Positions 5,888-63,882 of a DNA stretch of 64,000 nucleotides are shown here, piece by piece. Source of the DNA: Zootoca vivipara (lineage: Eukaryota); NCBI RefSeq assembly GCF_963506605.1, contig NC_083288.1, positions 40,486,001 to 40,550,000 on the forward strand, in the 5' to 3' direction. A program made the position numbers and the translations under genes. The number at the start of each line of letters is the position of its first letter. Position 1 is the stretch's first letter. A model generated the notes under the pieces. It was given only the letters and a program-made list of their open reading frames with translations, searched no databases and had not been told where the DNA came from.

Positions 5888-6016
5888 AACGAACATAAAA
5901 CGAAGAACCATTTTATAATTGACTTTGCTTTTTTTTGGTTTAGAATTTCTGTTGGTGACTCTGTAAGGTAATCAAATAAAGTGATTAAATATCTTCGATT
6001 GTAGTGAGTATAAGAA

Positions 6017-17911: not shown

Positions 17912-18880
17912 CTAAGGAACACCTCCCTTCCTTGCCATTGATTTCTTGAAAGCAGCTTTTATCTCTTTGTTCCTAAGACTGTAAATAATTGGGTTGAATG
18001 ATGGTGTCACTACTGTTTAGAGGAGAGAAAGGATCCTGTCGCTGTCCAGGGAATAGACTGATTTGGGTCGAACGTAGGTGAAAGTGACAGTTCCGTAGAA
18101 AAGAGAAACGACAATGAGATGTGAGGAGCAGGTGGAGAAGGCTTTGCGTCTGTTCTTGGCTGAAGGCATCCTTAGGATGGTGGCGATGATGAGCATGTAC
18201 GACAACAGGATGAGCAAAAATGGTACCAGGATAAAGAACACAGTTACCGTAGCAACTGCCACTTCATTCTTGAAGGTGTCAGTGGTAGCCAGTCTCAAAA
18301 CGGGCAGAATATCACAGAAAAAATGGTTGATTCTGTTAGGGCCACAATAGGGAAGAGTAAATATAGAAATGGACTGGCCCAAAGCCACCAAACTACCAAT
18401 GGCCCATGAAATAGAAGCCAGCAGAGCACATTCCTTAGGGCTCATGATGCAGGTATATTGCAGAGGTTTACAGATGGCGACGTAGCGGTCAAATGCCATG
18501 ACGGAAAGAAGGCAACACTCAGTAATACCAAAGAAAATAAAGAAATACATCTGAATCCCGCAGCCTACAAAGGATATGGTCTGATTCTCTGACAGTAAAT
18601 GTTCAAGCGTCTTTGGGATGATGGATGTGGTGTAGCCGATTTCCAAAAAGGACAAGTTCCAGAGGAAGAAGTACATTGGTGTGTGAAGGGTAGGCTCGGC
18701 AACCGTGATGATCAATATCAGGCTGTTCCCAATCAATGCCACCAAGTAGAATATGAGTACCAGCAAAAAAAGGAGAGCTTGCATGCTCTGGAAGTCTGAG
18801 AAGCCCACAAACACAATCTCGGTCAAACAGGACTGGTTGCCTCTTTTCATGTCATCATCCAGAGGGGATCCTGGAGACAT
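17912..18880 (-). pseudogene. Class II olfactory receptor (family 10-like) with one premature stop in TM7
   Basis: ATG at 18880 or 18850, after a polypyrimidine-CAG acceptor ending at 18889. All OR motifs present. TAA at 18019-18017 replaces the conserved Tyr (LSLL*TVVTPSFNPIIYSLRNKE); the frame continues to TAG at 17914-17912. Confidence 0.93.
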
Positions 18881-19174
18881 AACAAGAGCTGCAGATAAAG
18901 AGACGAGGGTTAGAATTACAGGCAACCCCTGATTTGTGTGCGATCGTGTTTGTGGCCCCCGTGTGCATTGGTGGAATGCACATAAGCCCACCCGCCCTGC
19001 TACACCCTGTTCCGCCCCATTCTGCCCTCTTCTGGGTCCAAAATGTTGGAGGTCACGCATCAACTGAATGCTTGCAAAATGAGTACCAACCTGTAATTCA
19101 AGTACCTTAGCTATGTCAAATAGAAGATTTACATCCTGATTTTTCTGTTTTTACTCAGAGGTAAGTCCCGTTGA

Positions 19175-25010: not shown

Positions 25011-25958
25011 CTATCCAACACTAACTCTCAGCAGGGATCTACCTGTGAGCTTCTTCAGTGCCTCTTTAACTTCTTTATTTCTCAAGGAATATATGACAGG
25101 GTTGAGCACAGGAGTCACCACTGAATAAAGGATAGCAACAACCTTGTCTTCTTCTGGGGATGAGGTTGAGGTAGGCCTGATGTATGTGTAGATGATGGTG
25201 GAAAAGTAGAAGCTGACAACAAGGAGGTGGGAAGAGCAAGTGGAGAAGGCTTTCTTCTTCCCTTCAGTAGATTTAATTCTAAAGATGGTTGTCAGAATAA
25301 ACAAATATGATGTTAACGTCAGCAAACAGCTACCCATGGAGAAGACTGCATCAGCTACATAAGCCATGGTTTCATTGAGGCTGATGTCTGAGCAAGACAA
25401 CATCAGCAAAGGAGGCAAGTCACAGAAGAAGTGGTTGATGACGTTGGAGTCACAGAAGGAAAGGCGCAGCACAAGCCCTGTGTGAACGGCAGAATTTATC
25501 ATCCCCACCACCCACACTCCAGCCACCACCCCAATGTACATTTCCCTCCTCATGATGACTGTGTACTGCAAAGGGTGGCAGATGGCGATGAAGCGATCAA
25601 AGGCCATAAAGGAAAGCAGCAATATCTCTGTTCCCAGAGCCCACAAGAAAAAGTAGACCTGGGCTATGCAGCCGGGAAATGAGATGGTCTTCCTGGAGGC
25701 CAAAGTAGTCTGGAGCATCTTGGGAATTGTCACCGAGATACAAAACATGTTTGCTATGGACAAATGGATGAGCAGGAAATACATGGGGGTGTGGAGCTTG
25801 CGGCAAGTGCTTAAAGTGAAGATGAAGAGGAAGTTGGCTGACAAAGCAGTTGCATAGATTAAAGTGAACCCCCAAAATATGATTTTCTGATGTTCAGGGG
25901 AGCTGGATAAGCCGACCAAAATAAAATCTTGAAGTGCTGACTGGTTCTTCAGTTCCAT
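25011..25958 (-). CDS. Class II olfactory receptor, intact, 315 aa (OR13G1-like)
   Basis: Single-exon ORF with NQS, LHTPMYFLL, MAFDRFIAICHPLQY, KAFSTCSSHL, PVLNPVIYSLRNKE. Confidence 0.97.
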   Translation of the reverse strand: MELKNQSALQDFILVGLSSSPEHQKIIFWGFTLIYATALSANFLFIFTLSTCRKLHTPMYFLLIHLSIANMFCISVTIPKMLQTTLASRKTISFPGCIAQVYFFLWALGTEILLLSFMAFDRFIAICHPLQYTVIMRREMYIGVVAGVWVVGMINSAVHTGLVLRLSFCDSNVINHFFCDLPPLLMLSCSDISLNETMAYVADAVFSMGSCLLTLTSYLFILTTIFRIKSTEGKKKAFSTCSSHLLVVSFYFSTIIYTYIRPTSTSSPEEDKVVAILYSVVTPVLNPVIYSLRNKEVKEALKKLTGRSLLRVSVG

Positions 25959-26509
25959 GTGTCTGATAGTGCTGACTTGTCCAGATGAATAAATTTATTG
26001 GGTGTTAACCAAAGGTCAAATTCATGAAGACAAATTCATAGAGGATGAACCATGATCTGGAACCCCCATGTTCAGAAACAGGACATTTTCCAGTATATTC
26101 ACACATCTCCAGTGGGATCAGAAGGAAATAAGAAATAGGTCACACAAAATTGCATGGCTGTCAACTGCTGCAAGACAGTCAAAAACTGCTGACAAAGACA
26201 AATAGAAGCCTTTGAGGTGTGAATTTAGCAGTCTCTTGCCGCCTCCAGCCACTCCACATCCCCTACCCTGTTACGCTGTAAGTCAGGGATAGGGAACCTG
26301 TGGCTCTCCAGGTATTGCTGGACTACAACTCCCATCATTGCAGATCATTGGCTACACTGGCTGGGAATGATGGGAGATGAAGTCCAACAGCACATGGAGG
26401 GCCGCATATTTCCTGCCCCTTCCTGCCAAAAGTTCTGTGGAAACCTACACTCCAGACATGTCTCATAGTAAGTTGGTGATGTGGGTGGCACATAAGTAAC
26501 AGTCTAGGA

Positions 26510-28748: not shown

Positions 28749-31700
28749 TCAATTATGGTCATCCTTCTTCCTTACTAACCTCTCTTTACTGTTCATATCT
28801 GGCCTAAATATAATGATGTGGATTTTGGGGAGGAAGATGCAACCCAGTAAGCCAGCAGTAGAGGCCAAGATGGAGAAGATCTCCACAGCCACCATGTATT
28901 TCCCTTTGGTGCTCAGATAAGTGGGGACAAAGGACAGCCAAACACTGCAGAAGACCAGCATGCTGAAGGTAATCAACTTGGCTTCATTGAAAGTATCAGG
29001 CAACTTCCTGGCAAAGAAAGCCACAGAGAAGCTCACAATGGCCAAAAGACCCATGTAGCCAAGAATAAGGTGGAACATGATGTCGGAGCCTTCATTGCAC
29101 TGCACTGTGATTTTCCCATCCTGGGAGTGCAGGTCAAACTCTGGGAATGGGGGAGAGGATGCCAGCCACCCAACACAGATGCCAGCTTGAATGAGAGAGC
29201 AGAAGGTGATAAGGGATCCTGCCAGCCTCTTCCCAAGCCATTTCCTCATGCTGTTTCCAGGCTTGGTGACCATGAATGCCAAAACCACAGTGAGGGTTTT
29301 GGCTAACACACAAGCAACAGCAATGGAGAAGACGAGGCCAAAGACGGTTTGCCTCAAGACACAGGTCACCTTTGTAGGCCTGCCAATGAATAAGAAGGAG
29401 CAGAGAAAGCAGAGAAGCAGAGAAGAGAGCAAGGTGCAGGTGATTCCCCAGTTGTTGGCTTTGACAATGGGAGTGTTCCAGTGCAGAGCGAAGGTCCCCA
29501 TCACAACAAGCGTGACCAGAGAAAGCAGGAGAGCCAAGGAAGCCAGAATCACCCCCAAGGGCTCCTCATAGGATAGGTAGCTTATTTTTTTTGGAACACA
29601 TTGGTCCTGAAAGGCATTTGGGTAGCGATCGTCTGGGCATTTCTCACACTGATCTGCATCTGAAAGTGAGAAGCATGCTTTTAGCATTTCTGGAAGTGAT
29701 AAAAATTAATTTTATTGATACTGTCTATTATGCTGTGCACAAAAAATATTACTGAGCTGTTGAACCATAGCCTATTTTTTCAACTAAGTGATGGTTCCTC
29801 CATGAGCATCTCCGCTGTACTAATTAATCCATTCATATTTATTTGTCATGGTTGCGGTATACTGATTGATTTCAGTCTTTTCCCATTAAACATGTCTAGC
29901 TCTACTAGTAAGTAAGTGAAGATGAAAATCTGTTGGCTGCAGGTTGAATGCTGACAAAAGGGAATCTATGGAGTGCAATCCTAATTATTTCTTCCCAGAT
30001 GTATGTCATCCTGATTTCAATGGTGGTTACTCCCATGTGGATGTACTTTCACACAATATACTCTTGAAAGAGGAGGCGAGAGGAAAGGACAATATGTATC
30101 AGTAAAATATAAACACATGTGCTTGGGATCCATGACAGTAGATAAGCAGACATAATAAGACTAAGACATGAATGTCTGTGTTGGAGAGGAAGATGGGAAT
30201 TCCAGTTGACTTGGGTTCCTTCACTTACCCTTCTGGACTGAAATCCTCCCTTTAGGGCACTGAACACAGTCATAGCAACACATTTGCTTTCCCTGCTGAG
30301 CAAACATACTCTGTCCAGGGTGGCAGCTCTCAACACAGGTGGAAATGGGCAGCATCTAATGGTAATGACAAGCAAGAGATTTTGAGTGGAATAAATCTTA
30401 TTGTCATCTATATGCAGCAGAAAGGTCACAGGACTGAAAATATCAGGCCCCCTGATAAAGATTCTTTCTGCTGTCCCCAGACTATTTGGCCAGCCCAGCA
30501 GATGCATGAATAGCAAAGAGAAGCTAGTGCCAACATTCTCCTTCCTGATAGATTGATTCCTCATAACCCAAGCCTGATTCCCTTCTGGAGGGAGAGGAGA
30601 GCTGAGATAAGGACCCAGCAGCAAATGCTTCTTCTCCTTCTTAGGTGTGCAGGAGTAGGGAATGAAGGACCATCATGAGTTAGTTCTGGTTGTTGGTGAT
30701 GAAAGATATTTAATATGGTTGCTATACATATTTTCTCTGCAGATCACACAACCTTGACAGTCCTCTCCAAGGAAGTTTTCACCAACCATTTTGTGGGAAT
30801 TAAACTCTCGTTCCCATTTTTAAAGTTATGCGGAAGATAGCCCTGGTCATTTGACCCGTTAAGAAGTTCCCCTTTTCCTCCTATAAAACTATGCAAGACA
30901 CTCTCTTTAAAAGTTCAAATAAGAATTAATAAATATAAAATCTACAATGCACGTAGGCTTCGTTCACATTGCTAATACATCTTTGTATTAGACCTCCAGT
31001 TATATGGCAGTATATAAACTCATTCAATCCATCCATCCATCCATCCATCCATCCATAAAAGATGATGATGATGGATAATGATTAAAAAAAAGATCTCTGG
31101 GTATAGGGTTATATATAAATTCAATCAATCAATCAATCAATCAATCAACCAATCAATCGCCTCAGGCATATGACAACACATATAGCCTTCCATAGCCTTC
31201 TGAGCAGCAGCTCTTTCCTTAGCCTTTGGGATGCTTTCATCCCACACATTATGGCCAAGCCTGCATGGAGTTTGGCCTCACAATCAGCCTGATGGAGACC
31301 AACATCCTGGCACAGGATATCGCCAGCCACTCCGTCCTTCAACATTAGTGACCACACACTTCAGGTGGTAGGTGATTTTCTTTCTACCTAGGCTCCGCAT
31401 TGTTCCCAACAACACATTTTGGAGCACAACAGGCCCTTTTCAAGAGCTTTAAACACTTGCAGATTCCTTACTCATAAATACTTTGTTCTTATCCCTGAAC
31501 TCCAAATTAGCTTCAAACTAGCTCTGCATCAACAAATTTGAACAAAGTAACAAAGATAGTATTTCATCAGTAAGTACCAGAGCTTGTCTCCTCACACCTC
31601 TCCTTTGTAGCCATCTCTGTTTTCCTGGATCTCCTGATCTTCTAATAAAAGATGATGATTAAAATAAGAAATAGTCCCACCCACCTGCTTGAACTTGGGA

Positions 31701-34700
31701 TTCCATGCAACGGCACTTCCATCCACTGTGAACTCTTTTCCTGGGGGTGCCTGAGGGTCCACCCTCCCCACTCGGACTCTCTGGAAAGACTCATTGGGAA
31801 ATGTGACCAAGTTGAGGAGATCATAGCCACCTGCCTGCTGCCCCTTCTCATCAAAAGAGATTTCTTCCCCAGCACTGTTGTTGAAGTGGATGTTCTTCAG
31901 GAAGGAGTGAAGCTAGATTGCAGGGAAAAACAACAACACAATCCTTGGAGGCTAATACGCTCTCTCTCTCTCATTTGCAAAGTGGACCTTTGTATTCTTA
32001 CTACAATTTATCATATATATTGGGTACTTCAAAAAAATTCCCCAATTAATATGTGAAACTGCCATGTGCTGAGTCAAACAACTGGTCTCTGTAGCCCAGA
32101 ACTGTCGACTTTGAATTGCCACAGTGCTACAGGGCATACATCCGAGGTTTCAACCCAATTTTGACACCAGAGGACACCCCTGCCTCTTGTGCAGCCCAAG
32201 TAGGAGAATCCTGGGATGGATTAATTTCAAGAGTTTGAATGTGCAGCTTGCAAAGCATGTGGCCTTTAACTGAGATAATGTCCCTCCCAATGATAGAATT
32301 CACCAGGGGAAATCCCCAAGGCCTCTCCTCCATGCCAGGTCTCAGCTGTGCAACATACAAATCAGTAATAATAACATTTGCTTCTAACATTGAGGAGAGT
32401 AATTGGCAGTACCTGCCAGGGCGGCATCCGTCTCTCAACCAGTACTTTCTGTTTGGCTCTTGATGAATACATGCTATGGAGAGCATGCGCTACTGCATGG
32501 ACGGCATTGTAGATGGTGTAGCTCTGGCTGGACATTTCCATTTCAAACACAGGTCCAGTGAGTTTCTCCAGCTTCTCCTCCCCAGTGCAGTGTTCCCGCA
32601 GTGTCTCAATTAGATTGTTATCTGAGAATGAACAGAGGAATGCACTGGCCCAGAACTCCTGGATGAAATTAAGATTTGACTGCCATGGATTTATGGTCTG
32701 TAGAAAGTCGTGAAACCCTGGAACTGGATTTGAGTGGAGTGTAAATGTCAAGGTGCCATTGAAGGATATGGAAGGGAATTTGTCTCCAGCCAGCACTGCA
32801 GTGAAATCCCATTGAGCTGTTGTAATCCACACCCTCTGTACAGGGTACATAGATAAAACCTCACAGGAGACTAAAACCAGTCTCAAACCCTCTAGAGACT
32901 GACTGTCTCCATAGACGAGAATCACATTCATCTGCCTCTGTGTGAGAGCAAACATGATTGGTCTCAGTTTTTGTTGAAGTAGCTCATTAGGTAACCATTT
33001 TGTCACTAGTGGGATCACCAGTGTCCAAGAAATGCAAAGATTATTTTGGAAAAGCCTTGGTCTAAGAGTACGAAGGAAGGTTTCTCCACTGTCATCATCT
33101 GAAACAAGGAGGCCAATCCAGTTCCACCCAAACTTCCGGAGGAGCCACACAATGCCATCATACTGAGCTTCTTCATTGGGGGCCATTTGGAAGAAGGAAG
33201 GGAAGAGCCTTTTGTCACTCAGCACTGGATCCAAGGAGCCATAGCTGAGCTAAAGTGAAAGGCATCATATTTTTTAGAATCCGAAGACCATCTATTTCTT
33301 CAAAGAAAGAATACGTCTGTGTTGTGGTGGTTAACCACCTGGTCTTACTTTTCAAAGTCTACACCCCTGGCATTATTAAGTCTCAGGGTAAGAGAAGTTT
33401 CTAAATAGGAGGCTGGATGCTCCCATGATTACATGCTTTGTGGCATTGTCAGGTTTGGAAGAATCAGAACTTTGGTTATTAGTATTATTGCTACCTTTGC
33501 CCCCCCCCCCGAAATCCCAATGCTAATTCAGATGGCAGTGTAGACTACACATAGCTATGAAGCTTTAACATAATCATGTACCCATACCAAGTCTAATGTA
33601 GGACATAGGTGTAGAAAACATAATATAATGGGATTGAAAGCAAACCTGGATGCTTTTTGGGGTTTCCCTGTGTATGTCTGCCCTTGTGGTTGTATCTATG
33701 TATCTACAAACATACCTGTGGAATCTTGTAGGTGTTTAATATATTGGCCATCTGAAGGGAGTTTTGGGAGGTGAGCCCTCCAACGACGGCAATTAATTTA
33801 TCTTCCCCATTACAGTGGTAATTGGGGGGATTTTGTTGTCCCACAAAAAGAAGAGCAAGAGTGTTCCAACAAGATTGCAAAGGATTAAAAGCATTCTCAT
33901 AAAATGTTGATCCCAGTGTGATGTTGGATAAGAATTTGGCATTCTTGTTGACCTCTTGCATGGCAAAGATGAAGGCAAGAACATGTTGGTAGTTTTTCGG
34001 GATCAGACTGCAATGAGACAAAGAATGATTGCAACACTGGTGGAAGAGAAACAACTGTGTTTCAGTTTTGATTTGTAAATCTATGTACCTTGAATTTTGC
34101 AACCCATAGGAAAGGAACATTTTATTCCAACTAATGAAACTACAGCAGTCTCCTAATAGAATTTGATTAGATGTATGTGAATGGTGGAGTCCAAGAAATC
34201 CCATGTTGTGCTATGGATGAATTGGTGGGTTTGGATATGGGAACCTTCGAACCAAAATTTCTTAATGTGCCAAGTTCAGTCAAGCTCTAATTCTGTTCCT
34301 ATTTAACTAGGTTCAAAACCACAAATGCAATGGAATATAAAATCGAGTGAAGCTGATTGTATGTTCCCAACTTCTTATATACAGAGTCCACGCCTACTTT
34401 TTGTTTAGTTTCTTTGTCTTCCATTTCTGAAACATGAAATTTTCATGGGAATGTATTCCCAATTGAACCTGGAGAAGAACTAAACATTAGACAAGGGTGG
34501 TCTTACCTGCGGGACACAAGGCCTTTTTTAGTGTCCCTGGAATCTGAGCCTAAGAGAGGGAGAAAGAGGGAGGGTAGTAGGAGTGGGATGTTCCTTCACA
34601 TTCTCTCCCTTTCTTTCTTTACTGCCTTTCTCCCTCATTGCTTTCTGCATGATTGGTATTTTCAATGGTTCCTTTAATGCAATCCCAAGCCAATAGCAAC

Positions 34701-37920: not shown

Positions 37921-38332
37921 CAAGAGCAGGCCTCCTCTCATCCATGCAGTTTGGGGAAATGTGCACTAACAGTTACCAGTCATATTTTGATTGAACTTAT
38001 GTTTATTGGTGCTAAACTAGTCCACTAGTGAGGCAAGACATCCACAGCCACACCTGCAGATGTAAAGGGAAAGTAGAGTTGTGTTTCACCAGTATATTGC
38101 GTGGACAGGCAGTATTTTTATGGGGAATATCTGTTTGAAGATGGATGAGGGCAGATGCAAATCAAAACAAATGTTAATGTGCTTGGAGCAATCCCCATTG
38201 TGTCAACTATGCAAAGAGAGAGTAAGAATTTCTCTTCCAAACCTCCCTCTCTAATATGCCAGAGAGCTCTTAAGAGCACACACAACAAGGGCCCCAACAG
38301 TGTTGTGTATGTGGAATATTGGTACAATCATG

Positions 38333-38749
38333 TGTCAGAGGGCCTGATATGGCTACTCTAGAGTAACGACTCCAGCATGGTCTTTTTAGGCTTTTATTAA
38401 GTGCTGATTATTTACAGTGTTCAGAGCGGTAAATATGCATCCTTAAGGTGAGGTGTCAGAACCTCCGAATGGCGATTGGCGCGTTTTCTTCCAGCACAGA
38501 AGCCTTGGTAGACCCAACCTCTTCCCCCTACGTTTGCGTCGCAATTCGGGAGTTGGGGGGATTGGCCTTCCCCCCGGGCCCCCCACTTCCTGTCCCACCT
38601 GGTGCATGGGCTCCGCAACCTTGCCTGAGCCTCGGACCCCACTTCCTGACCCTCCGCTAGAGGCAGAGCTCTCCCTACTCTCTCCAGCGCTTGGGGATGG
38701 GCTGGAACTTAAGATGGGAGGGACTTCCCTGTATCCCTTGTCCCTCACA
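38333..38749 (-). repeat. Gypsy 3' LTR
   Basis: Direct repeat of 43727-44143; AATAAA on the minus strand near 38393-38398. Confidence 0.98.
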
Positions 38750-39066
38750 TCCACCCCCCTCCCAGGCTCCTCTCCCCCCCTCCCTAAGGGCTCTCCGCTT
38801 GCTGGGGACGAGTGAAACCCCAAGAAGTCCGTGGTGTCAGAGCCTGTGGGTGTAAAAATTTCCCCCCAATCTGGCGATCTTTCCCTCTCCCCCTGAGAAG
38901 ACTGGAATCCCAAAAAGTCTGTGGCGTCAGAGCTGGTGGGAGTAAAAATGTTCTGCCAATCTTCTCCTGCCTCTGACGTAGTCGACCTTGGTGAAACCCA
39001 CACCTCTTCTTCCGTATCCTCAAATTCCGCTTCCCATCTCCATGGAGAGCTGCTGCCTGCTATCCC
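38443..39066 (-). CDS. In-frame C-terminal extension of Gypsy Pol (two FxGF motifs plus a basic NLS-like patch), overlapping the PPT and 3' LTR
   Basis: Same frame as Pol, directly after the TAA at 39069-39067 (39069-39003 = 66 nt), and open for 207 codons. Its internal 90-nt repeat differs mostly at synonymous sites. Confidence 0.7.
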   Translation of the reverse strand, partial: GIAGSSSPWRWEAEFEDTEEEVWVSPRSTTSEAGEDWQNIFTPTSSDATDFLGFQSSQGERERSPDWGEIFTPTGSDTTDFLGFHSSPASGEPLGRGGEEPGRGVDVRDKGYREVPPILSSSPSPSAGESRESSASSGGSGSGVRGSGKVAEPMHQVGQEVGGPGGRPIPPTPELRRKRRGKRLGLPRLLCWKKTRQSPFGGSDTSP

Positions 39067-42000
39067 TTACTCCCGCCCCTCCCCCTCCCTTTCCATGTTC
39101 CAGGGCTTGGGTCTGTGGGGGAAAAGGGCGTGGAACTCTTCCACTAAAAATTCCTCAGGTACTTCCGTGGCCGGTATCCACTCATTGTGGGACGGCGGAG
39201 TGTCCTCCCATGCTATAAGGTACTCCACCCCTCTCACCCCTCTCCTTGAGTCTAAAATCTCAGTTGCCTCATTGAGTCGTCGGGCGTCTCCCGTCTCCCC
39301 CCCTCCCTCTGGAGGCTGATCACTGTCCCGCAACCTGGTGCTTTCTCTGTACGGCGACAGCAGGGATCTATGAAACACTGGGTGCACTCTCATGTCCTCC
39401 GGCAGTGCTAGCCTGAAGGCTACCGGGTTGACCTGTTGCGTGACCGTGAAGGGGCCCAGCCTCCTGGGTGCTAACTTCTTGCATCGCCCCCTGGTGGGAA
39501 GACCTTCCGAGGACAACCAAACCTTGTCCCCCACCCTGATGACCTCCCCCGGTCGCCTGTGGCGATCTGCCCCCTTCTTGTACGCTTCCTTGGCCCTCTC
39601 CAAGTGTTCTCTGAGCTGCTGGTGCACCGTCTCCAGGTCCTCTGCCCAATCCTCTGCCTGTGGGCCCTCCTCCCCCTCCTCCCCCTCCCTCTCTGGGAAA
39701 GATCTGAGGTCGCGCCCATAGTTGGCTTTAAAGGGCGACACCCCTGTGGAAACGTGCACTGCATTATTGTAGGCAAATTCTGCCAGTGGCAGGCGATCCA
39801 CCCAGTCCGTTTGCCTCTGGCTGACGTAGCATCTCAGGTACTGCTGCAGAATGGCGTTGACCCTCTCCGCCTGTCCGTTGGTCTGCGGGTGTCTAGCCGT
39901 CGACAAGCTGACCTCCACCTGCAGGAGGTTCATGAGCCGCCGCCAGAACCTGGAAACAAATTGGCGGCCACGATCCGAAATAACTCTTAAAGGTAATCCA
40001 TGCAGTCTGAATACGTGGTCAACAAACAGTTTGGCTGTCTCTTCTGCAGAGACCGCTCTGGCACACGGTGTAAAGTGGCACATTTTGGACATAAGGTCCA
40101 CCACCACCAACACTGCGGTCTTGCCCCTGGATGAAGGCAGGTCTGTGATGAAGTCCATGGACACCACTTCCCACGGCCTGTGCGGTGTGGCTAAGGGCTC
40201 CAGCAACCCTGCTGGCGCTGCTCTGACCACCTTTGCTCGCTGGCAGGTGTCACAACCCCTTACATAGTCTCGAACATCTTCCCGCACCCCTGGCCACCAG
40301 AAGTGTCTCATGACTAGGTGAGCGGTTTTGTCCCTTCCAAAATGACCCGCCGTTGGGTTGTCGTGCATCTGCTTGAGGACCTTACGTCTAAGCTGGGTGG
40401 TGGGCAGGTACAGTGCACCCTTGTAGAAAAGCAGCCCCCTGCATTCTGCAAAGTCTCTTGCCTGCTCCCTCCCCCCTCGCAGCTCTCTGAAGATGTGGGT
40501 GGCAAACTCATCTGCTGCCGTCAGTGCTGTGAGTTCTGCCTCGCTCACCACTGCTGCTCCGCAGGACCATGCTGATGGGGGGAAAATGTGCCTGGGTGCT
40601 GGTGGCAACTCCTGCTCCATGTACTCTGGTTTGCGGGAGAGGGCGTCCGCCCTGACATCCTGCTCCCCCGGGATGTAGTGGATGGAGAAGTTGAAGTTCG
40701 AGAAGAACTCTGCCCACCGTATCTGCCGCTGGTTGAGCACCCTGGCCGTCCTCCAGAACTCCAGGTTCTTGTGGTCTGTGCACACCTGAATGGGGTGCTT
40801 GGCGCCCACCAGGAAGTGTCGCCAGTGCTGGAATGCAGAGTGGATCGCAAGAAGTTCCCTATCAAACACCGTGTAGTTGCGCTCTGGCTGGGTCAGCTTC
40901 CTGGAGAAGAAGGCACAGGGTCTCCACTCTCTGTTGGCGTCCAGTTGCAACAAAATGGCGCCCACAGCTCTATCTGAAGCATCTGTTTCCACGCGAAGGG
41001 GCGCATCCTGTACCACGTGGAACAGGTTCTGGTCTGAGGCGAATACCCTCTTGAGGCTTTCGAACGCTGCTTGCGCCTCTGGTGTCCACCTGAACTTCTG
41101 CTTGCCTCTCAGGCAGTCAGTGATGGGAGCCGTAACGCGAGAGAAGTTCTTGATGAACTTCCTGTAGAAGTTGGCGAAGCCTAGGAGGCGTTGGGCATCC
41201 TTGCGCGTCCTGGGGCTGTGCCAGTCCAGGATGGCCTGCACCTTGTCCTTGTCCATCGCCAGCCCCTTGTCTGACAGCTTGTAGCCCAGGAAGTCCACTT
41301 CCCTGGTGTGAAACTTGCACTTCTCCAGCTTCACATACAGGTGGTTCTCCTTCAGGCGCTGCAACACCTCCCTGACATCCTTCACATGTTGTACTGGGTC
41401 ATTGGAATAGATAAGGATGTCATCTAGGAATACCAAGCAGTTCTTGAAAAGGAGGGACCCCAGGACGTGGTGCATGAAGGCCTGGAAGCATGCTGAGCCC
41501 CCTTGCAAACCGAAGGGCATCACCAGATATTCAAAAGAGCCCAGTGGCGTGAACATCGTGGTTTTCCACTCATCGCCTTCCCGGATCCTGATCAAGTTGT
41601 ACGCCCCCCTCAGGTCTAGCTTGGTGAAGATCTTGCCCCTGTGCGCCGCTGTCAGCAGATCGTCCACTCTGGGCATTGGGAAAGCCACCGGTTCCGTCAT
41701 GGAGTTGAGCCGTCTAAAATCCACCACCAGACGGCGCTGTTGCGTGTCCTTCTTGTCCACCCAGAAGACCGGGCTGCCCCCTGCTGCCTTGCTTTCTCTG
41801 ATGAACCCCCGCTTGAGGTTCTTGTCGATGAACTCCCTCAGATCCTCCAGTTCCTGATCTGACATGGAGTACAGTTTGGCTGGGGGTAGCGTGGCCCCTG
41901 GCACCAGGTTGATTTGACAGTCAAAGGACCTGTGTGGGGGTAGGTGGTCGGACTCCGCTTCGCTGAAGACCTCCTGCAGGTCCCAGTACGGCTTGGGTAT

Positions 42001-44143: not shown

Positions 44144-44544
44144 TCATGGAACCCACATACAATATTTGAACGTTGTGATTACTGTAACATGAATTTAATG
44201 TACAAATCTATAAACAAAGGGAAAATAAGGGTTGCATTTAAAAATGAACGGATATTGAAAACATTAGCCACAACATGACCTGAGGAACGCCTGACCTGGA
44301 TTTGGGCCCAGATCAATTCTCATGTTTCTCCACACAGACAGCACCCTGGAGAAGTAGAGCACAGTAAGTAACAGCATTTCACATTCGGCTCAGCAGCAGG
44401 TGAGCAGAGGGTGAATTTTCTTTATTTGGCCTGTGTTTGTCTTTTGAGGGTATAGACAGGCAGGCCAAAAATGCAGATATTCAGCAAAGTTTACAAAAGA
44501 TGCACAAATACCCCATGGTCCCAGCATAATGTGCTGTCCTAGGT

Positions 44545-44924: not shown

Positions 44925-47900
44925 TCAACTATGGTCATCCTTCTTCCTTACTAACCTCTCCTTACTGTTCATCTCAGGCCTAAATATAATGATGAAGATT
45001 TTAGGGAGGAAGATGCAACCCAGTAAGCCAGCAGTAGAGGCCAAGATAGAGAAGATCTCCACAGCCACCATGTATTTCCCTTTGGTGCTCAGATAAGTGG
45101 GGACAAAGGACAGCCAAACACTGCAGAAGACCAGCATGCTGAAGGTAATCAACTTGGCTTCATTGAAAGTATCAGGCAACTTCCTGGCAAAGAAAGCCAC
45201 AGAGAAGCTCACAATGGCCAAAAGACCCATGTAGCCAAGAATCAGGTGGAACATGATGTTGGAGCCTTCATTGCACTGCACTATGATTTGCCCATCCTGG
45301 GAGTGCAGGTCAAACTCTGGGAATGGGGGAGAGGATGCCAGCCACCCAACACAGATGCCAGCCTGAATGAGAGAGCAGAAGGTGATAAGGGATCCTGCCA
45401 GCCTCTTCCCAAGCCATTTCCTCATGCTGTTTCCAGGCTTGGTCACCATGAATGCCAAAACCACAGTGAGGGTTTTGGCTAACACACAAGCAACAGCAAT
45501 GGAGAAGACGATGCCAAAGACGGTTTGCCTCAAGACACAGGTCACCTTTGTAGGCCTGCCAATGAATAAGAAGGAGCAGAGAAAGCAGAGAAGCAGAGAA
45601 GAGAGCAAGGTGCAGGTGATTCCCCAGTTGTTGGCTTTGACAATGGGAGTGTTCCAGTGCAGACCGAAGGTCCCCATCACAACAACCGTGATCAGCGAAA
45701 GAAGGAGAGCCAAGGAAGCCAGAATTGCCCCCAAGGGCTCCTCATAGGATAAGTAGCTTATTTGTTTTGGAATACATTGGTCCCGAAAGGCATTTGGGTA
45801 GTGATCAGCTGGGCATTTCTCACACTGATCTGCATCTGAAAGTGAGAAGCATGCTTTTAGCATTTCTTGAAGCAAAAAATTATTAATATTATTGATACAG
45901 TCTATTATGGTGTACACGAAACATATTACTGAGCTGATGAACCAAAGGTGATGAACCAAAGTGATGGTTCCTCTCTGATCATCTCAGATTTACTAATCAA
46001 TCTATGCATATTTATTTGTCATGGTCGCAGTATATTGATTGATTTCAGTGTTCCCCCTTAATCATGTCCAGCTCTGCATCCAGCCCCATGTTTTTGCATT
46101 TCTAAGCTTGTCGTCTAAGTGTTTCTTTTTTACACTTTCTGTAAGGGAACTTGGGAGTAGACGAAACAGCCAAGTAGCCTGTCATCAGGAAAATCTATAT
46201 TTCACAAGAAATGACTGTTCCTAAGGCTTGAAACTGTGTGGATACAATAGAAGAGATAATTTACAATTTTAATAACAGAAGATGAAAATTTGTTGGCTGC
46301 AGTTTCAATGGTGAGAAAAGGAAATCTATGGCATGCAATCCTATCCATTTCTACCCAGATGTATGTTATGCTGATTTCAATGGTGCTTACTCCAATGCGG
46401 ACGTAGTTTCACAGAAGATATACCAGAATAGCTGTCCAAAGAGTAGGGGAAAGGAAAGGAAAATATGTATCAGTAAAATAAACACATGTGCTTGGGATCC
46501 ATGACAGAAGATGAGCAGACATAATAAGACTGAAACATGAATGTCTGTGTTGGAGAGGAAGATGGGAATTCCAGTTGACTTGGGTTCCTTCACTTACCCT
46601 TCTGGACTGAAATCCTCCCTTTCGGGCACTGAACACAGTCATAGCAACAGATTTGTTTTCCCTGCTGAGCAAACATACTCTGTCCAGGGTGGCAGCTCTC
46701 AACACAGGTGGAAATGGGCAGCATCTAAGGGTAATGACAAGCAAGGGATTTTGAATGGAATAAGCTTGCTTCTCTACATAAATCTTATTGTCATCTATGT
46801 CTGCTATGCGGCAGAAAGGTCACAGGGCTGAAATTAGAGGATGACTGTCAAGCATTTGCTCCCTTGGCAAGCATCAGGCCCCCTGATAAAAATGCTTTGT
46901 GCTGTCACCTAACCATTTGGCCAGCCCAGCACATGTCTGAATGGCAAAGAGAAGCTCCTGCCAACCTTCTCCTTCTTGATAGATTGATTCCTCATAACCC
47001 AATGCTGAATCCCTCCTGCAGACACTGTCTTTTAAAGTTTAAATAAGAATTAATTTTTACTTAGTGTACTATGGCAGCTTTTGACTGATCTTGGATTAAG
47101 AAAGATAGAGAAAGTAAGATTAAGGGTATAAATCATCGTAAGAATGTAGTATATAAAGGATAGAGATTAGAGAAATGAGGTTGGGTACATTCAATATAAG
47201 AATTAAATTATACAACGGGATTCGACAGGAAGTCTATTTTTTATGTCATAGCCTTTGTAAATAATCGAATAGAAACTAGCAGCAATACATTTTAAGTTTT
47301 TGTTCATAAGTATGCAAGAAAGGACAAACACAGGTTTTTCTTTTTCTTTTTATTATTTTTCTTTTTATTCTTCTTCTTCTTCTTTGTGTAAATAGCTGGA
47401 ATTTTCATTTATTCTGAGAGATGTATTATATATTTAATGCTCTGCAAGACTATTAATAAAGCTAATAAAAATACTTAGTGTACTTTTACTTGCAGATTAA
47501 AATACACGATGCAGGCAGGTGTTACTTACATTGCTGATACATCTTATATAGATTTTTATCTAAGATAAATGCTGTTACAGACTGACAGCAGCACAACAGA
47601 ACATTCTGCTCTATTGTGTTTTTAATATTCGGTTGGGAGCCGCCCAATGCCCCTGGGGATACCCAGCTTCATGGGCGGGGTATAAATAAATTATTATTAT
47701 TTCGATTCAACCCATCACATAAATCATTACCTCATTTTATATTTAATATTAATCATTACCTCATTTCATGTTTAATACGCATGCGCAATAAGCATCGCTA
47801 ACTAAACTTTGATTCTCACCGTGATCTGTTACATATTGTTAGTTTACATGCATGGGAACCTGTGTTACGTGTGGATGTAACAACTTATGTTCTAGCTCAT

Positions 47901-50900
47901 GAATTATATCATTGTGATTTGCGTATTAGCTGACCTTCTGTTCTGGTAAAAGAACGGCATCTTGCTGAATCATCAGTTCCTTTAAAGCATCAGGTTACCA
48001 TAACTCTTCTAATATAAGCATATCCTGAGATTTATAAGGATTTACATTATCACCTTAATTGTGGCCCTTTGGGCCCCTGCTACAATAACTGCCATAACTG
48101 TACAAACCGACAGAACTATGCCCTTTTAAAATGTGGTTTGTTTGTTTTTACAGGGGCTATTGGGTTGTTGTTTTTATTATGATTATGTATGATGTGGTTT
48201 CATGTGTTTATTTCAATCTATGAATCGCCCTGAGACCTCTTGGTATAGGGTGGTATATAAATTCAATCCACCCACCCATTGCATCAGGCATATGAAAGCA
48301 AAGGGTTCTATAGCCTTCTGAGCATTCACCGTTTCCTTAGACTTTTGGAGGCTTTCATCCCAAACATTATGGCCAAGCCTGCACGGAGTTTGGCCTCACC
48401 ATCAGCCTGATGGACACCAACATCCTGCAACAGGTTATCACTGGCACTCCATCCATCAACATTAGTGACCACACACTTCAGGTGGTAGGTGATTTTCTTT
48501 CTACCTGGACTCCACTTGTTGGGACACAGTCTCAAACAAAGATTGTTGCCAACAACACATTTTGGAGCACAACAGTCCCTTTTCAAGAGCTTTAAACATT
48601 TGCCAATTCCTCACCCAGAAATACTTTGCTCTTTAACCCTGAGCTCCAAATTTGAACAAAGTAACAAAGATTGTAGTTCATCAGTGAGTACCAGAGCTTG
48701 TCTCCTCACACCTCTCCTTTGTAGCCATCTCTGTTTTCCTGGATCTCCTGATCTTCTCATAAAAGATGATGAAAACAAGAAATAGTCCCACCCACCTGCT
48801 TGAACTTGGGATTCCATGCAATGGCACTTCCATCCACTGTGAACTCTTTTCCTGGGGGTGCCTGAGGGTCCACCCTCCCCACTCGGACTCTCTGGAAAGT
48901 CTCATTGGGAAATGTGATCAAGTTGAGGAGATCATAGCCACCTGCCTGCTGCCCCTTCTCATCAAAAGAGATTTCTTCCCCAGCACTGTTGTTGAAGTGG
49001 ATGTTCTTCAGGAAGGAGTGAAGCTAGATTGCAAGGGGGGGGGGGGAGACAGACCTTGTAGGTTAATACGCTCTCTCTTTTGCCAGTTGGACCTTTGGCT
49101 TTTTACTACCATTCATCGGTATGTTATAGGACACTGAAAGTTGCCTTCCAGTGAGTGAAATCATTGCTCTATATAGCTCAGTAATTTCTACACTGGTTGT
49201 TATTGACTCTCTAAGGTTGCTCTAGTCTATTCTGAATTCAAAGCAGATGCTCTGCCATTGAGCTGTAAGCTCTTGTTTTACTTGGCATAGATACTGGGTA
49301 CTTCAAAAAACTCCCCATTAACATATGAAACTGTCATGTGCTGAGTCAAACAATTGGTCTCTGTAGTCCAGAACTGTCTACTCTGAATTGCCACAGTTCT
49401 ATACGGCATACATCTGAGGTTTCAACCCAGTTCTGATGACAGAGGACACCCCTTTCCCTTATGCAGCCCCAAGTAGGAGAATCCTGGGATGGATTAATTT
49501 CAAGAGTTTGAATGTGCAGCTTGCAAAGCATAAGAAATAAATTCTCACCCAATGATAGAGCTCACCAGGGAAAATCCCCAAGGCCTCTCCTCCATGCCAG
49601 GTCTCAGCTGTGCAACATACAAATCAGTAATAATAATAACACCTGTGCTTCTAACATTGAGGAGAGTAGTTGACAGTACCTGCCAGGGCTGAACTTTTGG
49701 CTGCATCCATCTTTCACCCAGTACTTTCTGTTTGCCTCTTGATGAATACATGCTATGGAGAGCATGTGCTACTGCATGGACGGCATTGTAGATGGTGTAG
49801 CTCTGGCTGGACATTTCCATTTCAAAGACAGGTCCAGTGAGTTTCTCCAGCTTCTCCTCCCCAGTGCAGTTTCTCTGAGTTGTGGCAATTAGATTGTGAT
49901 CTGGGAATGAACAGAGGAATGCACTGGCCCAGAACTCCTGGATGAAATAAAGATTTGGCTGCCATGGATTCATGGTCTGTAGAAAGTCCTGAAACCCTGG
50001 AACTGGATTTGAATGGAGTGTAAATGACAAAGTGCCATTGAAGGATATTGATGGGAATTTGTTTCCAGCCAGCACTGTAGTGAAATCCCATTGAGCTGTT
50101 GTAATCCACACCCTCTCCAGAGGGTTCATAGCGAAAACCTCACAGGAGACTAAAACCAGTCTCAAACCCTCCAGAGACTGACTGTCTCCATAGACGAGAA
50201 TCACATTCATCTGCCTCTGTCTGAGAGCAAACATGATTGGTCTCAGTTTTTGTTGAAGTAGCTCATTAGGAAAAAAGTTTGTCACTAGTGGGATCACCAG
50301 TGTCCAGGAAATGCAAAGATTATTCTGGAAAAGCCTTGGTCTGAGAGTACGAAGGAAGGTTTCTCCACTGTCATCATCTGAAACAAGGAGGCCAATCCAG
50401 TTCCACCCAAACGTCCGGAGGAGCCACACAATGCCATCATATTGAGCTTCTTCATTTGGGGCCATTTGGAAGAAGGAAGGGAAGTGCCTTTGGTCACTCA
50501 GCACTGGATCTAAGGAGCCATAGCTGAGCTAAAGGGAAAGACACCATATTTTTAAGAATCCGAAGACCATGTATTTCTTCAAAGAAATAATACTTCTGTA
50601 TTGTGGTGGTTAACCACCTGGTCTTACTTTTCAGAGTCTACACCCCTGGCATTATTAAGTCTCAGGGTAGGAGAAGTTTCTAAACAGGAGGCTGGATGCT
50701 CCCATGATTACATGCTTTGTGGCATTGTCAGGTTTGGAAGAATCAGAACTTTGGTTATTACTATTATTGCTTCCTTTGCCCCCCCCCCGAAATCCCAATC
50801 CTAATTGAGACGGCAGTGTAGGCAACACATAGCTATGAGGCTTTAACATAATCATGTACCCATACCAAGTCTAATGTAGGACATATGTGTAGAAAACATA

Positions 50901-53900
50901 ATGTAATGGGATTGAAAGCTAACCTGGATGCTTTTTGGTGTTTTCCTGTGTATTTCTGCCCTTGTGGTTGTATCTATCTACACACATACCTGTGGAATCT
51001 TGTAGGTGTTTAATATATTGGCCATCTGAAGGGAGTTTTGGGAGGTGAGCCCTCCAACGACGGCAACTAATTTATCTTCCCCCTTACAGTGGTAATTGGG
51101 GGGATTTTTTTGTCCCATGAAAAGAAGAGCAAGAGTGTTGAAACAAGATCGCAAAGGGTTAAAAGCATTCTCATAAAATGTTGATCCCAGGGTGATGTTG
51201 GATAAGAATTTGGCATTCTTGTTGATCTCTTGCATGGCAAAGATGAAGGCAAGAACATGCTGGTAGTTTTTCGGGATCACACTGCAATGAGACAAAGAAT
51301 GACTACAACACCTTTTTAGAACTAAAATATCCACCTGATGAAGTTAAACAACAGATCAACAGAGCCAGACAGATACCTAGAGAGAACCTGCTGCAAGACA
51401 GACCCAAAAAAGAAAATAACAGAACACCACTAGTCATCACATACAGCTCCCAAGTTAAAACAGTACAACGCATCATCAGAGATCTACAGCCTCTCCTGGA
51501 CAATGACAGCTCCCTTTCTCAAGCTCTGGGAGGAAGACCTTTCATTGCCTACAGACAGCCACCCAATCTTAAACAACTCCTCACCCACAATAATACAACC
51601 ACCAGACTTAACATGGACACTGGTACCAGAGCCTGCAATAAACCCAGATGCCAACTTTGCTGCCACATACACCCAGACAACACCATTACTGGCCCCAACA
51701 ACATCCAACATACCATCTCAGGACTATTTAATTGCTCATCCTCTAACATTGTGTATGCCATCAAATGCCAACAGTGCCCTTCAGCTCTCTATATTGGACA
51801 AACAGGCCAAACCCTACGCCAAAGGATAAATGGACATAAATCTGACATCAGGAACCAGAAGACAGAAAAACCAGTAGGAGAACACTTCAATCTCCCAGGA
51901 CATTCTATACAAGATCTCAAAGTAGCTGTCTTACTACAAAAGAATTTCAGAAATAGACTGGAAAGAGAAGTTGCTGAATTACAACTTATCACCAAGCTCA
52001 AAACCATGGAGGGACCTGGTTTGAACAGAGATATCGGATTCTTATCTCATTATACATGATAAGCGATCTTCAGCCATCTCAACCCTTGCTTTTTCATGCA
52101 AAACCATTTGCAGTCGTTTCCAGTCATCAACAGCTATCAGTCAGTCAATCACCCATTTCCACCACCCTTCTGAGTGATCCCCCAACCCCATCCCCACCCC
52201 TCCCCACTCCTTCTCTACATATGTGCCTGGAAACTCCCATTTCACTGTATCTGAAGAAGTGTGCATGCACACGAAAGCTCATACCAAAATAAAAACTTAG
52301 TTGGTCTTTAAGGTGCTACTGAAGGAATTTTTTTATTTTACTTCGACCCAGACCAACACGGCTACCTACCTACAACACTGGAGGAAGAGAAACAAGTGTG
52401 TTTCAGTTTTGATTTGTGAATCTATGTACCTTGAATGTTGCAACCCATAGGACAGGAACATTTTATTACAACTAATGAAACTGGAGCAGTCTCCTTATAG
52501 ATTTTGATTAGATTTAGGTAAATGGTGAATTCAAAGAGATTCATTTTTGTGCTATGGATGAATTGGTGGGTTTGGATATGGGAAACCCAGAAACAGAAAG
52601 CTGTTAAGTTCTACGGTTAACACATTCCCCTCTCTTTTAAACATAATCTCCATGCCTGTCTCTTGTTCTTCTTCTTTGTCCACCACCTCCCTTCCGTTTC
52701 TGAACCATGAAGTATTCACTGGAATATGTTCTCAATTCAACCTGTAGAACAACCATTTAGTATACCAGTGTGCTCCAACACACAAGGGCTTTTGAGCGGC
52801 CCTTGAATCACAGTGTAAGAGAGGGAGACAGTGTCAGCATTTGTGCCCGGGGGACAGGATGAGACTGCCCAGAGCTGGAGCAATGCCCTGTGCACATTCC
52901 TGGCTGTAAGGACAGACTTGTGGCATGAAAATATGCGATTGTCCTCATTTGTGAAGAACAACACACACAAGTAATAAAGAGCCATACAGTAGGGCTAAAC
53001 TACTTTATTGTAGGCTATTCACAACATCAATCTCTGCTGCGCTGCTCAGATACTCAGAGTTGTGCATAGTTGCTTCCAGCACGTCTCGAGCCAGAAGCGA
53101 AAATAAAGAAGTACAATACCATCACATGGGGAGAAAGGCAGATAACACACAGTCATTTTTCACGGTAAAATTCCAGACACACAAATCATACCACCCTGTG
53201 CTGTAGAAGCTCGGTGAACAAAATCATAACAGACAGATGGGAGGGTAGGACTGGGATGGTCTCTCCTTCTCTCCTTCTCTCCCTGCTACATTTTGACTGC
53301 CAGTAGTGAGCTCCAGGAACAGACAGAGAAACTGCATATGAGCAATATCTGCTCTATTTCCCCCTCGCTGCTTTCTGCACGCTAAGTCTTCTAAACTGCT
53401 GATTTCATGCAACTCCAAGCCATTAGCAAGTGACAGAATACTTGGTACGCCTATTTAAATTATGACAAGTGTAAAGTACATAAAAGCTTTACCAACCATA
53501 TAATAAGAAATGTGCTGTTTAAGGTACGGGCAAAATACAAACCCCTGCTAGAACATAAAACACCACTTTGGATATCTCCTTTAGAGGCCAAGGTGGTTAA
53601 AAAGAAAAATATGAAAGGAGATTGGCTGCCATATAACTCATTACTAACAGAGGATGGTAACCAAGTAAGACTAAAGAATTATGAAGAAGTAAAGGATCAA
53701 CTATTAGGATGGCTAGAGTATTCCCAACTCTTTGCGACGTCCAGTACATTTCTGAGCACAATTCAAAGTGTTGGTGCTGACCTTTAAAGCCCTAAACGGC
53801 GTTGGTCCAGTATATCTGAAGGAGCATCTCCACCCCCATCATTCTACCAGGACACTGAGGTCCAGTGCCGAGGGCCTTCTGGTGGTTCCCTCGCTGCGAG

Positions 53901-58976: not shown

Positions 58977-61900
58977 TCAACAATGGTCATCCTTCTTCCT
59001 TACTAACCTCTCTTTACTGTTCATCTCAGGCCTAAGTATAATGATGAAGATTTTAGGGAGGAAGATGCAACCCAGTAAGCCAGCAGTAGAGGCCAAGATG
59101 GAGAAGATCTCCACAGCCACCATGTATTTCCCTTTGGTGCTCAGATAAGTGGGGACAAAGGACAGCCAAACACTGCAGAAGACCAGCATGCTGAAGGTAA
59201 TCAACTTGGCTTCATTGAAAGTATCAGGCAACTTCCTGGCAAAGAAAGCCACAGAGAAGCTCACAATGGCCAAAAGACCCATGCAGCCGAGAATAAGGTG
59301 GAACATGATGTTGGAGCCTTCATTGCACTGCACTATGATTTGCCCATCCTGGGAGTGTAGGTCAAACTCTGGGAATGGGGGAGAGGATACCAGCCACCCA
59401 AGACAGATGCCAGCTTGAATGAGAGAGCAGAAGGTGATAAGGGATCCTGCCAGCCTCTTCCCAAGCCATTTCCTCAGGCTGTTTCCAGGCTTGGTCACCA
59501 TGAATGCCAAAACCACAGTAAGGGTTTTGGCTAACACACAAGCAACAGCAATGGAGAAGATGATGCCAAAGACGGTTTGCCTCAAGACACAGGTCACCTT
59601 TGTAGGCCTGCCAATGAATAAGAACGAGCAGAGAAAGCAGAGAAGCAGAGAAGAGAGCAAGGTGCAGGTGATTCCCCAGTTGTTGGCTTTGACAATGGGA
59701 GTGTTCCAGTGCAGACCAAAGGTCCCCATCACAACAACAGTGACCAGAGAAAGCAGGAGAGCCAAGGAAGCCAGAGTGGCCCCCAAGGGCTCATCATAGG
59801 ATAGGTAGCTTATTTGTTTTGGAATACATTGGTCCTGAAAGGCATTTGGGTGGTGATCATCTGGGCATTTCTCACACTGATCTGCATCTGAAAGTGAGAA
59901 GCATGCTTTTAGCATTTCTGGAAGCAAATTTTTTTATTATTATTGATACAGTCTATTATGGTGTACACGAAACATATTACTGAGCTGATGAACCAAAGGT
60001 GATCAACCAGTGTTCCCCCTTAATCATGTCCAGCTCTGAATCCAGCCCCATGTTTTTGCATTTCTAAGCTTGTCGTCCAAGTGTTTCTTTTTTACACTTT
60101 CTGCAATGGAACTTGGGAGTAGACGAAACAGCCAGGTAGCCTGTCATCAGGAAAATCTATATTTGACAAGACTGTTGACGGTTCCTAAGGCTTGAAACTG
60201 TGTGAATACAATAAAAGAGATAATTTACAATTTTAATAACAGAAGATGAAAATTTGTTGGCTGCAGTTTCAATGGTGAGAAAAGGAAATCTATGGCATGC
60301 AATTCTAACCATTTCTACCCAGATGTATGTTATGCTGATTTCAATGGTGCTTACTCCAATGCAGACGTAATTTCACAGAAGATATACCTGAATAGCTGTC
60401 CAAAGGGTTGGGGAAAGGAAAGGAAAATATGTATCAGTAAAATAAACACATGTGCTTGTGATCCATGACAGAAAATAAGCGGACATAATAAGACTGAAAC
60501 ATGAATGTCTGTGTTGGAGAGGAAGATGGGAATTCCAGTTGACTTGGGTTCCTTCACTTACCCTTCTGGACTGAAATCCTCCCTTTCGGGCACTGAACAC
60601 AGTCATAGCAACACATTTGCTTTCCCTGCTGGGCAAACATACTCTGTCCAGGGTGGCAGCTCTCAACACAGGTGGAAATGGGCAGCATCTAATGGTAATG
60701 ACAAGCAAGGGATTTTGAATGGAATAAGCTTGCTTCTTTACATGAATCTTATTGTCATCTATGTCTGCTATGTGCAGAAAGGTCACAGGATAGAAATTAG
60801 AGGATGGCTGTCAAGCATTTGCTCCCTGGGCAAGCATCAGAAGACAAAGATGCATTGTGCTGTCACCTAACCACTTGGCCAGCCCAGCACACATCTGAAT
60901 GGCAAAGAGAAGCTCCTGCCAACCTTCTCCTTCTTGATAGATTGATTCCTCATAACCCAATGCTGATTCTCTCCTGGAGACGCTCTCTTTTAAAGTTTAA
61001 ATAAGAATTAATTTTTACTTAGTGTACTATGGCAGCTTTTGACTGATCTTGGATTAGGAAAGATAAGGAAAATAAGATTAAGGGGATAAATCGTTGTAAG
61101 AATGTAGTATATAAAGGATAGAGAATGGAGAAATGAGGTTGGGACGCAGGTGGCGCTGTGGGTTAAACCACAGAGCCTAGAGCTTGCCGATCAGAAGGTC
61201 GGCGGTTCGAATCCCTGCGACGGGGTGAGCTCCCGTTGCTCGGTCCCAGCTCCTGCCAACCTAGCAGTTCGAAAGCACATCAAAGTGCAAGTAGATAAAT
61301 AGGTACCGCTCCAGCAGAAAGGTAAACGGCGTTTCCGTGCGTTGCTCTGGTTGGCCAGAAGCGGCTTTCTCATGCTGGCCACATGACCTGGAAGCTGTAC
61401 GCCGTGTCCCTTGGCCAATAATGCGATATGAGCGCTGTAACCCCAGAGTCGGTCTCGACTGGACCTAATGGTCAGGGGTCCCTTTACCTTTACTTTTACA
61501 TTCAGTATAAGAATTAAATTATACAACGGGATTTGACAGGAAATCTATTTTCTTTTATGTTATAGCCTTTGTAAATTATCAAATAGAAACTAGTAGGAAT
61601 ACATTTTAAGTTTTTGTTCATAAGTATGTAAGGAAGGACAAAAACAGGTTATTCTTTTTAAAATTCTTTTTCTTTTTATTCTTCTTTGTGTAAATAGCTG
61701 GAATTTTCATTTATTCTAAGAGATGTATTATAGATGTAATGCTCTGCAAGACTATTAATAAAGCTAATAAAAATACTTAGTGTACTTTTACTTGCAGATT
61801 AAAATATACAATGCAGGCAGGTGTTACTTACATTGCTGATACATCTTATATAGATTTTTATCTAAGATAAATGTTGTTACAGACTGACAGCAGCACAACA

Positions 61901-61995
61901 GAACATTCTGCTGTATTGTGTTTTTAATATTCGGTTGGGAGCCGCCCAATGTCCCTGGGGATACCCAGCTACATGGGCGGGGTATAAATAAATAA

Positions 61996-62028
<33 letters not shown>

Positions 62029-63579: not shown

Positions 63580-63882
63580 CTAGATTGCAAGGGGAGGGGG
63601 AGAGACAGACCTTGTAGGCTAATGTGCTCTCTCTATTGCCAGTTTGACCTTTGGCTTTTTACTACCATTCACCGGTATGTTATAGGACACTGAAAGCTGC
63701 CTTACAGTGAGTGAAATCATTGCTCTATATAGCTCAGTCATTTCTATACTGGTTGTTATTGACTCTCTAGGGTTTCAGAGTCTTTCCCAGCATGATCTTG
63801 AGATGCTGGGGGTTGAACATGGGACCTTCTGAATGAACAGAAATGCTCTGCCATTGAGCTGTAAGCCTTTCCAGTTCCAATA

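Follow-up and report, generated by a model that had tools for sequence, protein, structure and literature searches.

Coding sequence that overlaps the U3 region of a long terminal repeat (LTR) is familiar from HIV nef and MMTV sag, but these are separate accessory genes and not the end of pol. Closer parallels come from plant chromoviruses of the Ty3/Gypsy group: in CRM group A and in Tekay Bingo1-4/7 the polyprotein frame itself reaches into the 3′ LTR, and the available parts of the reports treat the LTR-encoded end of CRM as a putative targeting domain (PMC3059260, PMC3605345, PMC6317226). No overlap of pol with an LTR is described for vertebrate chromoviruses in the accessible portions of PMC2774666, PMC4131045 and PMC3601003, and we found no vertebrate report of Pol running into a 3′ LTR in the literature covered, which was incomplete; a precedent may exist. 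Here we analysed a Ty3/Gypsy retrotransposon on the minus strand (44143–38333) of a 64,000-nucleotide stretch of Zootoca vivipara DNA (NC_083288.1, positions 40,486,001 to 40,550,000; hereafter the window, in whose positions all coordinates are given), in which a gene extends across the polypurine tract (PPT) and through most of U3, finishing shortly ahead of the TATA box, an arrangement belonging to a clade of chromoviral Ty3/Gypsy elements in lizards. A first-pass annotation of the window had called LTR overlap unusual for a Gypsy pol. Work on plants had, however, already documented it in CRM group A and in part of the Tekay chromoviruses (PMC3059260, PMC3605345), so it is not new for Gypsy, and what this locus contributes is its extension from plant chromoviruses to vertebrates. 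The best overall explanation, to which we assign a probability of roughly 0.7, is that the overlapping frame encodes an integrase tail that would serve as a targeting and import arm in place of methyl-lysine reading.

The element carries the features expected of a chromovirus, namely TG...CA LTRs, a PPT and a target duplication. Its LTRs (44143–43727 and 38749–38333) are 417 bp each and differ at 2 positions (99.5% identical), and a 5-bp target duplication, CATGA, flanks them at 44148–44144 and 38332–38328. Pfam recovers the order of reverse transcriptase, RNase H and integrase with a chromodomain at the integrase C-terminus that defines chromoviruses among Ty3/Gypsy elements. The likeness to vertebrate V-clade (Amn/sushi-like) chromoviruses covers the succession of gag, protease, reverse transcriptase, RNase H, integrase and chromodomain, the TG...CA LTRs and an AATAAA near the LTR 3′ end, but the available parts of those reports do not describe two features of the window element, the degenerate cage of its chromodomain and a tail of 200 residues that runs through the PPT and U3 (PMC2774666, PMC4131045); placement in the V-clade is to be read with the fact that our 66-row tree contained no named Amn or sushi reference and that the nearest matches are lizard Pols. 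CRM group A elements, by the descriptions available, have a CR motif instead of a chromodomain, downstream of the PPT, whereas the window element keeps its chromodomain, upstream of the PPT. It also differs from CRM in carrying FxGF motifs before the PPT, and its LTR encodes a linker of Gly and Ser and, at the end, a basic stretch with LLCWK.

The annotated Pol ends in ...EGEGRE at an in-frame TAA (39069–39067) that lies between the chromodomain end and a further 207 sense codons (39066–38446), closed by a stop at 38445–38443. As the first-pass annotation had reported, this frame crosses the PPT (38763–38754, read as Gly/Arg codons) and the LTR boundary, which falls inside the D-V codons of a D-V-R motif (38751–38743), and continues for 307 nt into the 3′ LTR, so that about three quarters of the repeat (307 of 417 nt, 74%) doubles as coding sequence. 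The tail stop does lie upstream of the LTR AATAAA (38398), as proposed. The further claim that all of U3 is crossed holds for most of it, the open reading frame (ORF) stopping 6 nt short of a TATA-like box (38437) that, with the AATAAA, occupies 38437–38393; at the position matching this box, loose ends of related copies, read by eye, carry TATATATA. The encoded tail has an acidic first half, a Gly/Ser/Pro middle and a basic end with PELRRKRRGKRLG at 38550–38512, and a single-sequence model predicts it to be disordered (mean pLDDT 53). The 5′ LTR had been cited as a second open copy of the frame; it is open, but with 99.5% identity between the LTRs, and with each of their two differences altering a residue, we do not count it as independent evidence. 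A 19-nt repeat in U3 (38655–38637 and 38599–38581), also within the coding frame, contains CAGGAAGT, which we take to be an ETS-type site.

Relatives of the integrase end were drawn from the best 120 of 840 matches, which were led by Podarcis Pols; the closest proteins were Gypsy Pols of Podarcis and Anolis. Among the closest lizard-type Pols the chromodomain end could be detected in 13, and all 13 run on past it without a stop for 122–398 residues; most of the distant relatives end within about 30 residues of it. Four sister clusters with 55 members listed gave a chromodomain match in 38, and 34 of these 38 carry tails of at least 100 residues, while three cluster members end no more than 4 residues past the chromodomain. 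The nearest sister Pols finish in the same basic patch followed by LLCWK, and P0002, P0133, P0134 and P0216, which derive from ENA or Logan contigs and not from genome gene models, are unbroken through to LLCWK. In pairwise alignments, the basis of our homology claims, sister tails cross a stretch rich in Gly and Glu and then D-V-R or D-V-T, corresponding to the PPT and LTR start of the window, and the LTR part of the window tail by itself aligns to five of them with z scores of 7.3–9.1, beating all 300 shuffles in each case. With the tail as query there was no match among longer proteins, Atlas, Pfam or PDB sequences, and among cluster representatives a single match, to a repetitive 889-residue protein that was not used; related loci numbered none in viral contigs and one, distant (33%) and not used, in metagenomes.

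Two sister groups have tails of other kinds. In the group P0004–P0011 the central W of the chromodomain is lost, about 210 codons follow the LTR-start motif, and the tails finish with a run of basic residues followed by [VI]L[SN]WC. P0017, P0019, P0020 and cluster members from Anolis and Podarcis have an intact aromatic cage and tails of 102–129 residues ending in RRS[AL]R[IL], an ending present in 22 of 218 stored proteins; by their peptide pattern these tails probably enter the LTR too. A close counterpart is the HMGN acidic-patch motif RRSARLSA, as given in the accessible part of PMC12487698.

To follow variation among copies, reads and contigs of four runs were aligned to 38320–39900. Of 186 variant rows, 40 were listed, by an unknown ranking, and of 157 loose ends, 24; the counts are drawn from these. 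Variant rows in the tail fall at the third codon position in 16 of 23 cases (p 4e-4), compared with 12 of 16 in Pol, and before the LTR the figure is 16 of 20. Inside the LTR, four loose ends of diverged copies (38687, 38648, 38609 and 38586) are in frame and stop-free, with 17 of their 30 differences at third positions (p 0.007) and 13 silent, as counted by eye; a fifth, at 38574, is also open and was excluded from the count as it overlaps the same codons. In a loose end at 38456 the frame ends one codon before the stop of the window, again ahead of the TATA box. The sole indel among the listed variants is 6 nt. No RNA data set was listed as containing the sequence, and the RNA reads that did align came mostly from a diverged subfamily and were too few to place transcript ends or to show expression of this copy.

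Homology and selection thus make it very probable that the 207 codons are a genuine, coding C-terminal tail of integrase, in agreement with the first-pass annotation: sister Pols read into a homologous tail, differences among copies are biased towards third positions, and no frameshifting indel is listed. The coding overlap with the LTR is family-wide. The alternative that G/C richness and promoter constraint keep the frame open, with no function for a protein, could appeal to the 102 LTR codons, which alone stay open in 1,164 of 20,000 dinucleotide shuffles (5.8%) and are by themselves not significant, to the three variant rows listed inside the LTR, none at a third position, to the lack of a Pfam match in the tail and to the CCAAT boxes at 38565 and 38479 within the coding part of the LTR. 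It is largely refuted, and we regard it as very improbable, for the whole 207-codon frame stays open in only 88 of 20,000 shuffles (0.44%), the in-frame peptide is homologous to uninterrupted sister Pols, and silent-site bias is seen both before and inside the LTR.

Two features missing from the first-pass annotation, conserved FxGF motifs before the LTR and a degenerate chromodomain, bear on what the tail may do. Ahead of the PPT lie WQNIF-x9-FLGF (38958–38905) and WGEIF-x9-FLGF (38868–38815), with W-x-x-[IVMQ]-F upstream of each FxGF, the second motif being the second unit of a 90-nt tandem duplication whose units are 79% identical. All 11 of the 11 close tails contain the pattern of a hydrophobic residue and F, 7–11 residues and [FL]xGF, and the bodies of these proteins never do; in shuffled tails (seven were shuffled) it turns up 1–10 times per 5,000. 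Linkers measure 8–9 residues in all 14 motifs, with a D/E count of 3–6 in 10, 2 in the two of the window and 0 in two. A TND-interacting motif (TIM), according to the accessible parts of PMC9987994, consists of a helix, an acidic or S/T-rich linker of 8–16 residues and then FxGF, which is essential for LEDGF/HRP2. The window motifs resemble the TIM/IBM sequences of KMT2A/MLL1, IWS1, JPO2 and JIL-1, as far as these are described in the parts available, in placing a hydrophobic anchor in a disordered region, followed by a linker of 8–9 residues, D/E/S/T-rich to differing degrees and with CK2-type sites, and by FxGF (PMC9987994; 10.1101/624023); they differ in that the candidate motif sits in a retrotransposon integrase. 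We found no retrotransposon with an FxGF motif in the literature, our coverage of which was incomplete and mostly at the level of abstracts.

The chromodomain of the window (PF00385, 39267–39130; 27 bits, cut-off 25.1) has N, W and T at the cage positions, the first and third of the three aromatics of type I being absent, and is type II-like by the definition in the accessible part of PMC3059260. Cage positions were scored in 115 of 123 proteins. A degenerate cage was found in all 14 motif-bearing Pols, as read from sequence segments, 7 of them lacking the third aromatic (6 also the first) and 7 the central W; the first and third aromatics are kept in 90 of 101 Pols without the FxGF motif. In a quick tree of 66 rows, 13 motif bearers form one clade (SH-aLRT 89), and the association of motif with cage loss is therefore one evolutionary event.

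We propose that the tail would remain attached to integrase as a disordered docking arm, whose two helix–linker–FxGF motifs could dock on LEDGF or HRP2 at the TND/IBD domain. Such docking would hold the integration complex on transcribed chromatin that carries H3K36 methylation and bias insertion there, the arm replacing a chromodomain deprived of its methyl-lysine cage, and the LTR-encoded basic end would import the complex into the nucleus or anchor it on chromatin. Lentiviral integrases contact the LEDGF/HRP2 domains through their folded core and not through a linear motif. LEDGF/HRP2-type tethering by the tail is put forward tentatively, as something a little short of an even chance; the accessible parts of PMC9987994 describe both proteins as readers used by lentiviral integrases. 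A compound scenario seems unlikely: TIM mimicry would arrive at the tether used by lentiviruses through another interface, and in this subfamily the tail would be switched on when a conserved stop is read through. If tethering is true, an 18-residue peptide should bind LEDGF/HRP2, young insertions of the clade should favour transcribed gene bodies, unlike those of intact-cage sister families, and a retroelement would be employing the host's own linear LEDGF-binding motif. Integration-site choice of vertebrate Gypsy elements is an essentially untested field, and 'Gypsy integrase-like' proteins in databases conceal modular tails of an FxGF type and an HMGN-like RRSAR type.

Several observations weigh against the targeting-arm explanation. 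The linkers of the window are only mildly acidic (2 D/E and 5 S/T of 9), those of P0004/P0007 contain no D/E at all, and the obligate TIM helix is not seen, the single-sequence model giving no secondary structure at low confidence. The link between motif and cage loss, as read from the alignments and tree, amounts to one evolutionary event. The LTR part has no significant alignment to 6 of 11 tails (P0002, P0007, P0148, P0017, P0020 and P0016; z ≤2.0), the three LTR variant rows count here as well, LTR overlap in the relatives, which are known from proteins alone, is deduced from peptide alignment, and direct searches with the tail as query returned no Pol. The element also sits between class C GPCR genes, outside a gene body, roughly 780 nt beyond the final exon of one of them, a position that neither supports nor tests tethering. 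An alternative that we hold just below probable is a tail that is coding but whose FxGF is no TND ligand, acting instead as a generic acidic/basic arm for histone binding, nuclear import or another partner. The FxGF motif is short, the linkers are weakly acidic in the window and not acidic in one sister group, and intact-cage relatives are also tailed, with the RRS[AL]R[IL] ending that resembles the HMGN motif in the part of PMC12487698 available; yet a generic arm leaves unaccounted for the 8–9-residue spacing between two aromatic anchors, kept across families with otherwise unalignable tails, and the presence of the motif twice in several families.

For the basic end, the first-pass label of a patch resembling a nuclear localization signal (NLS) agrees with the bipartite pattern of two basic residues, a spacer of 10–12 residues and 3 of 5 basic residues, which is matched by the tail end in the window and in 9 of 13 relatives. 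The patch with its LLCWKK extends over 38550–38476; LLCW[KR] is common to the sister families, and the conserved LLCW exceeds what an NLS requires. On these patterns, a role in nuclear import or chromatin binding appears fairly probable. The C-terminal tail of Ty1 integrase, as far as our sources describe it, is similar in being disordered and in combining an NLS with a short host-docking segment, which in Ty1 binds Pol III, but Ty1 belongs to the Copia superfamily and has a different partner. To our knowledge the Ty1 tail does not overlap an LTR.

The first-pass annotation regarded the TAA as copy-specific, which is unsupported as stated; the variant-row evidence leans slightly towards a shared stop. 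A TAA common to the subfamily and read through at a low rate would yield two integrases, one short and the other extended by the tail, which would be reached by readthrough, a possibility that we stop just short of calling probable and that would add readthrough control at the end of pol. At about 13 variant rows nearly all other copies differ from this copy, and none of these lies at 39067–39069, a site covered by X1 (depth 27,866 at 39075) and by an organism-B contig spanning 38639–39111; the listing does include rows with less support by every measure, for example 38983, and from 39017 to 39082 no row is among those listed where 2.6–4.2 are expected. Downstream of the stop the organism-B contig has 16 listed differences, 12 at third positions (p 8e-4), indicating that selection acted there. 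The lack of a row at the stop is nonetheless indirect evidence, because 40 of 186 rows were listed with unknown ranking. The GGG that follows the stop is like a type III context, but the likeness is limited to this leading GGG and the context is neither type I nor type II, according to the available part of PMC2754532; 3′ of the stop there is no stable structure (z 0.09 to 1.54), and neither a known readthrough 3′ context nor a stimulatory structure is found here.

The opposing view takes the TAA for a lesion confined to this one dead copy, with active copies making a single, constitutive long integrase; we likewise rate it at not quite even odds. Sister Pols are open at the stop position, and a diverged expressed subfamily is stop-free here, with a different sequence that is two codons shorter and rejoins the frame (13 and 8 reads). 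Besides the TAA, pol is damaged at three places in this copy: the frame changes twice, in C-runs near 42465 and 42245, and a stop interrupts it at 42222–42220. The copy is dead for reasons other than the TAA. A private change would, however, be expected among the best-supported variant rows, as others were, and none is at the stop. Removal of the stop by splicing is highly improbable: a donor-like GA|GTAAGG overlapping the stop and an in-phase acceptor-like site at 38934–38933, which can be read directly from the sequence by the splice consensus, would define a 138-nt intron, but five of the five variant rows listed within it, 38941 among them, are at third positions, so the stretch is translated, and no such joint is among the 4 joints listed, at low RNA depth. 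Two predicted structures, scored against mononucleotide shuffles in 18 windows and not relied on, are a stem-loop at 39130–39071 that ends just before the stop (-27.4 kcal/mol, z -3.4) and a hairpin at 38980–38921 (z -3.6).

Upstream, the element comprises a gag ORF (43751–42387; Retrotrans_gag, Ty3_capsid and zinc knuckle by Pfam) and pol (42575–39070), with protease, reverse transcriptase, RNase H, integrase (H2C2, rve and SH3) and the chromodomain. At the gag-pol junction (42581–42500) a slippery-type heptamer, G-GGA-AAC, near 42579 is followed by a GC-rich stem (z -0.54), resembling the -1 frameshift site of PEG10. Rfam gave no match. Elsewhere in the window are tandem class C GPCR genes (7tm_3 and ANF_receptor; 28749–34210, 44925–51343 and 58977–63693), three copies that are 91–97% alike and probably encode vomeronasal type 2 receptors, together with three olfactory receptor ORFs (12255–13229, 18017–19150 and 25011–25994). 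Other mobile-element sequences comprise a Copia-type gag at 951–1937, an endonuclease-bearing LINE-like element with in-frame stops at 4832–9462 and a GIY-YIG ORF at 51247–52059 that is possibly Penelope-like.

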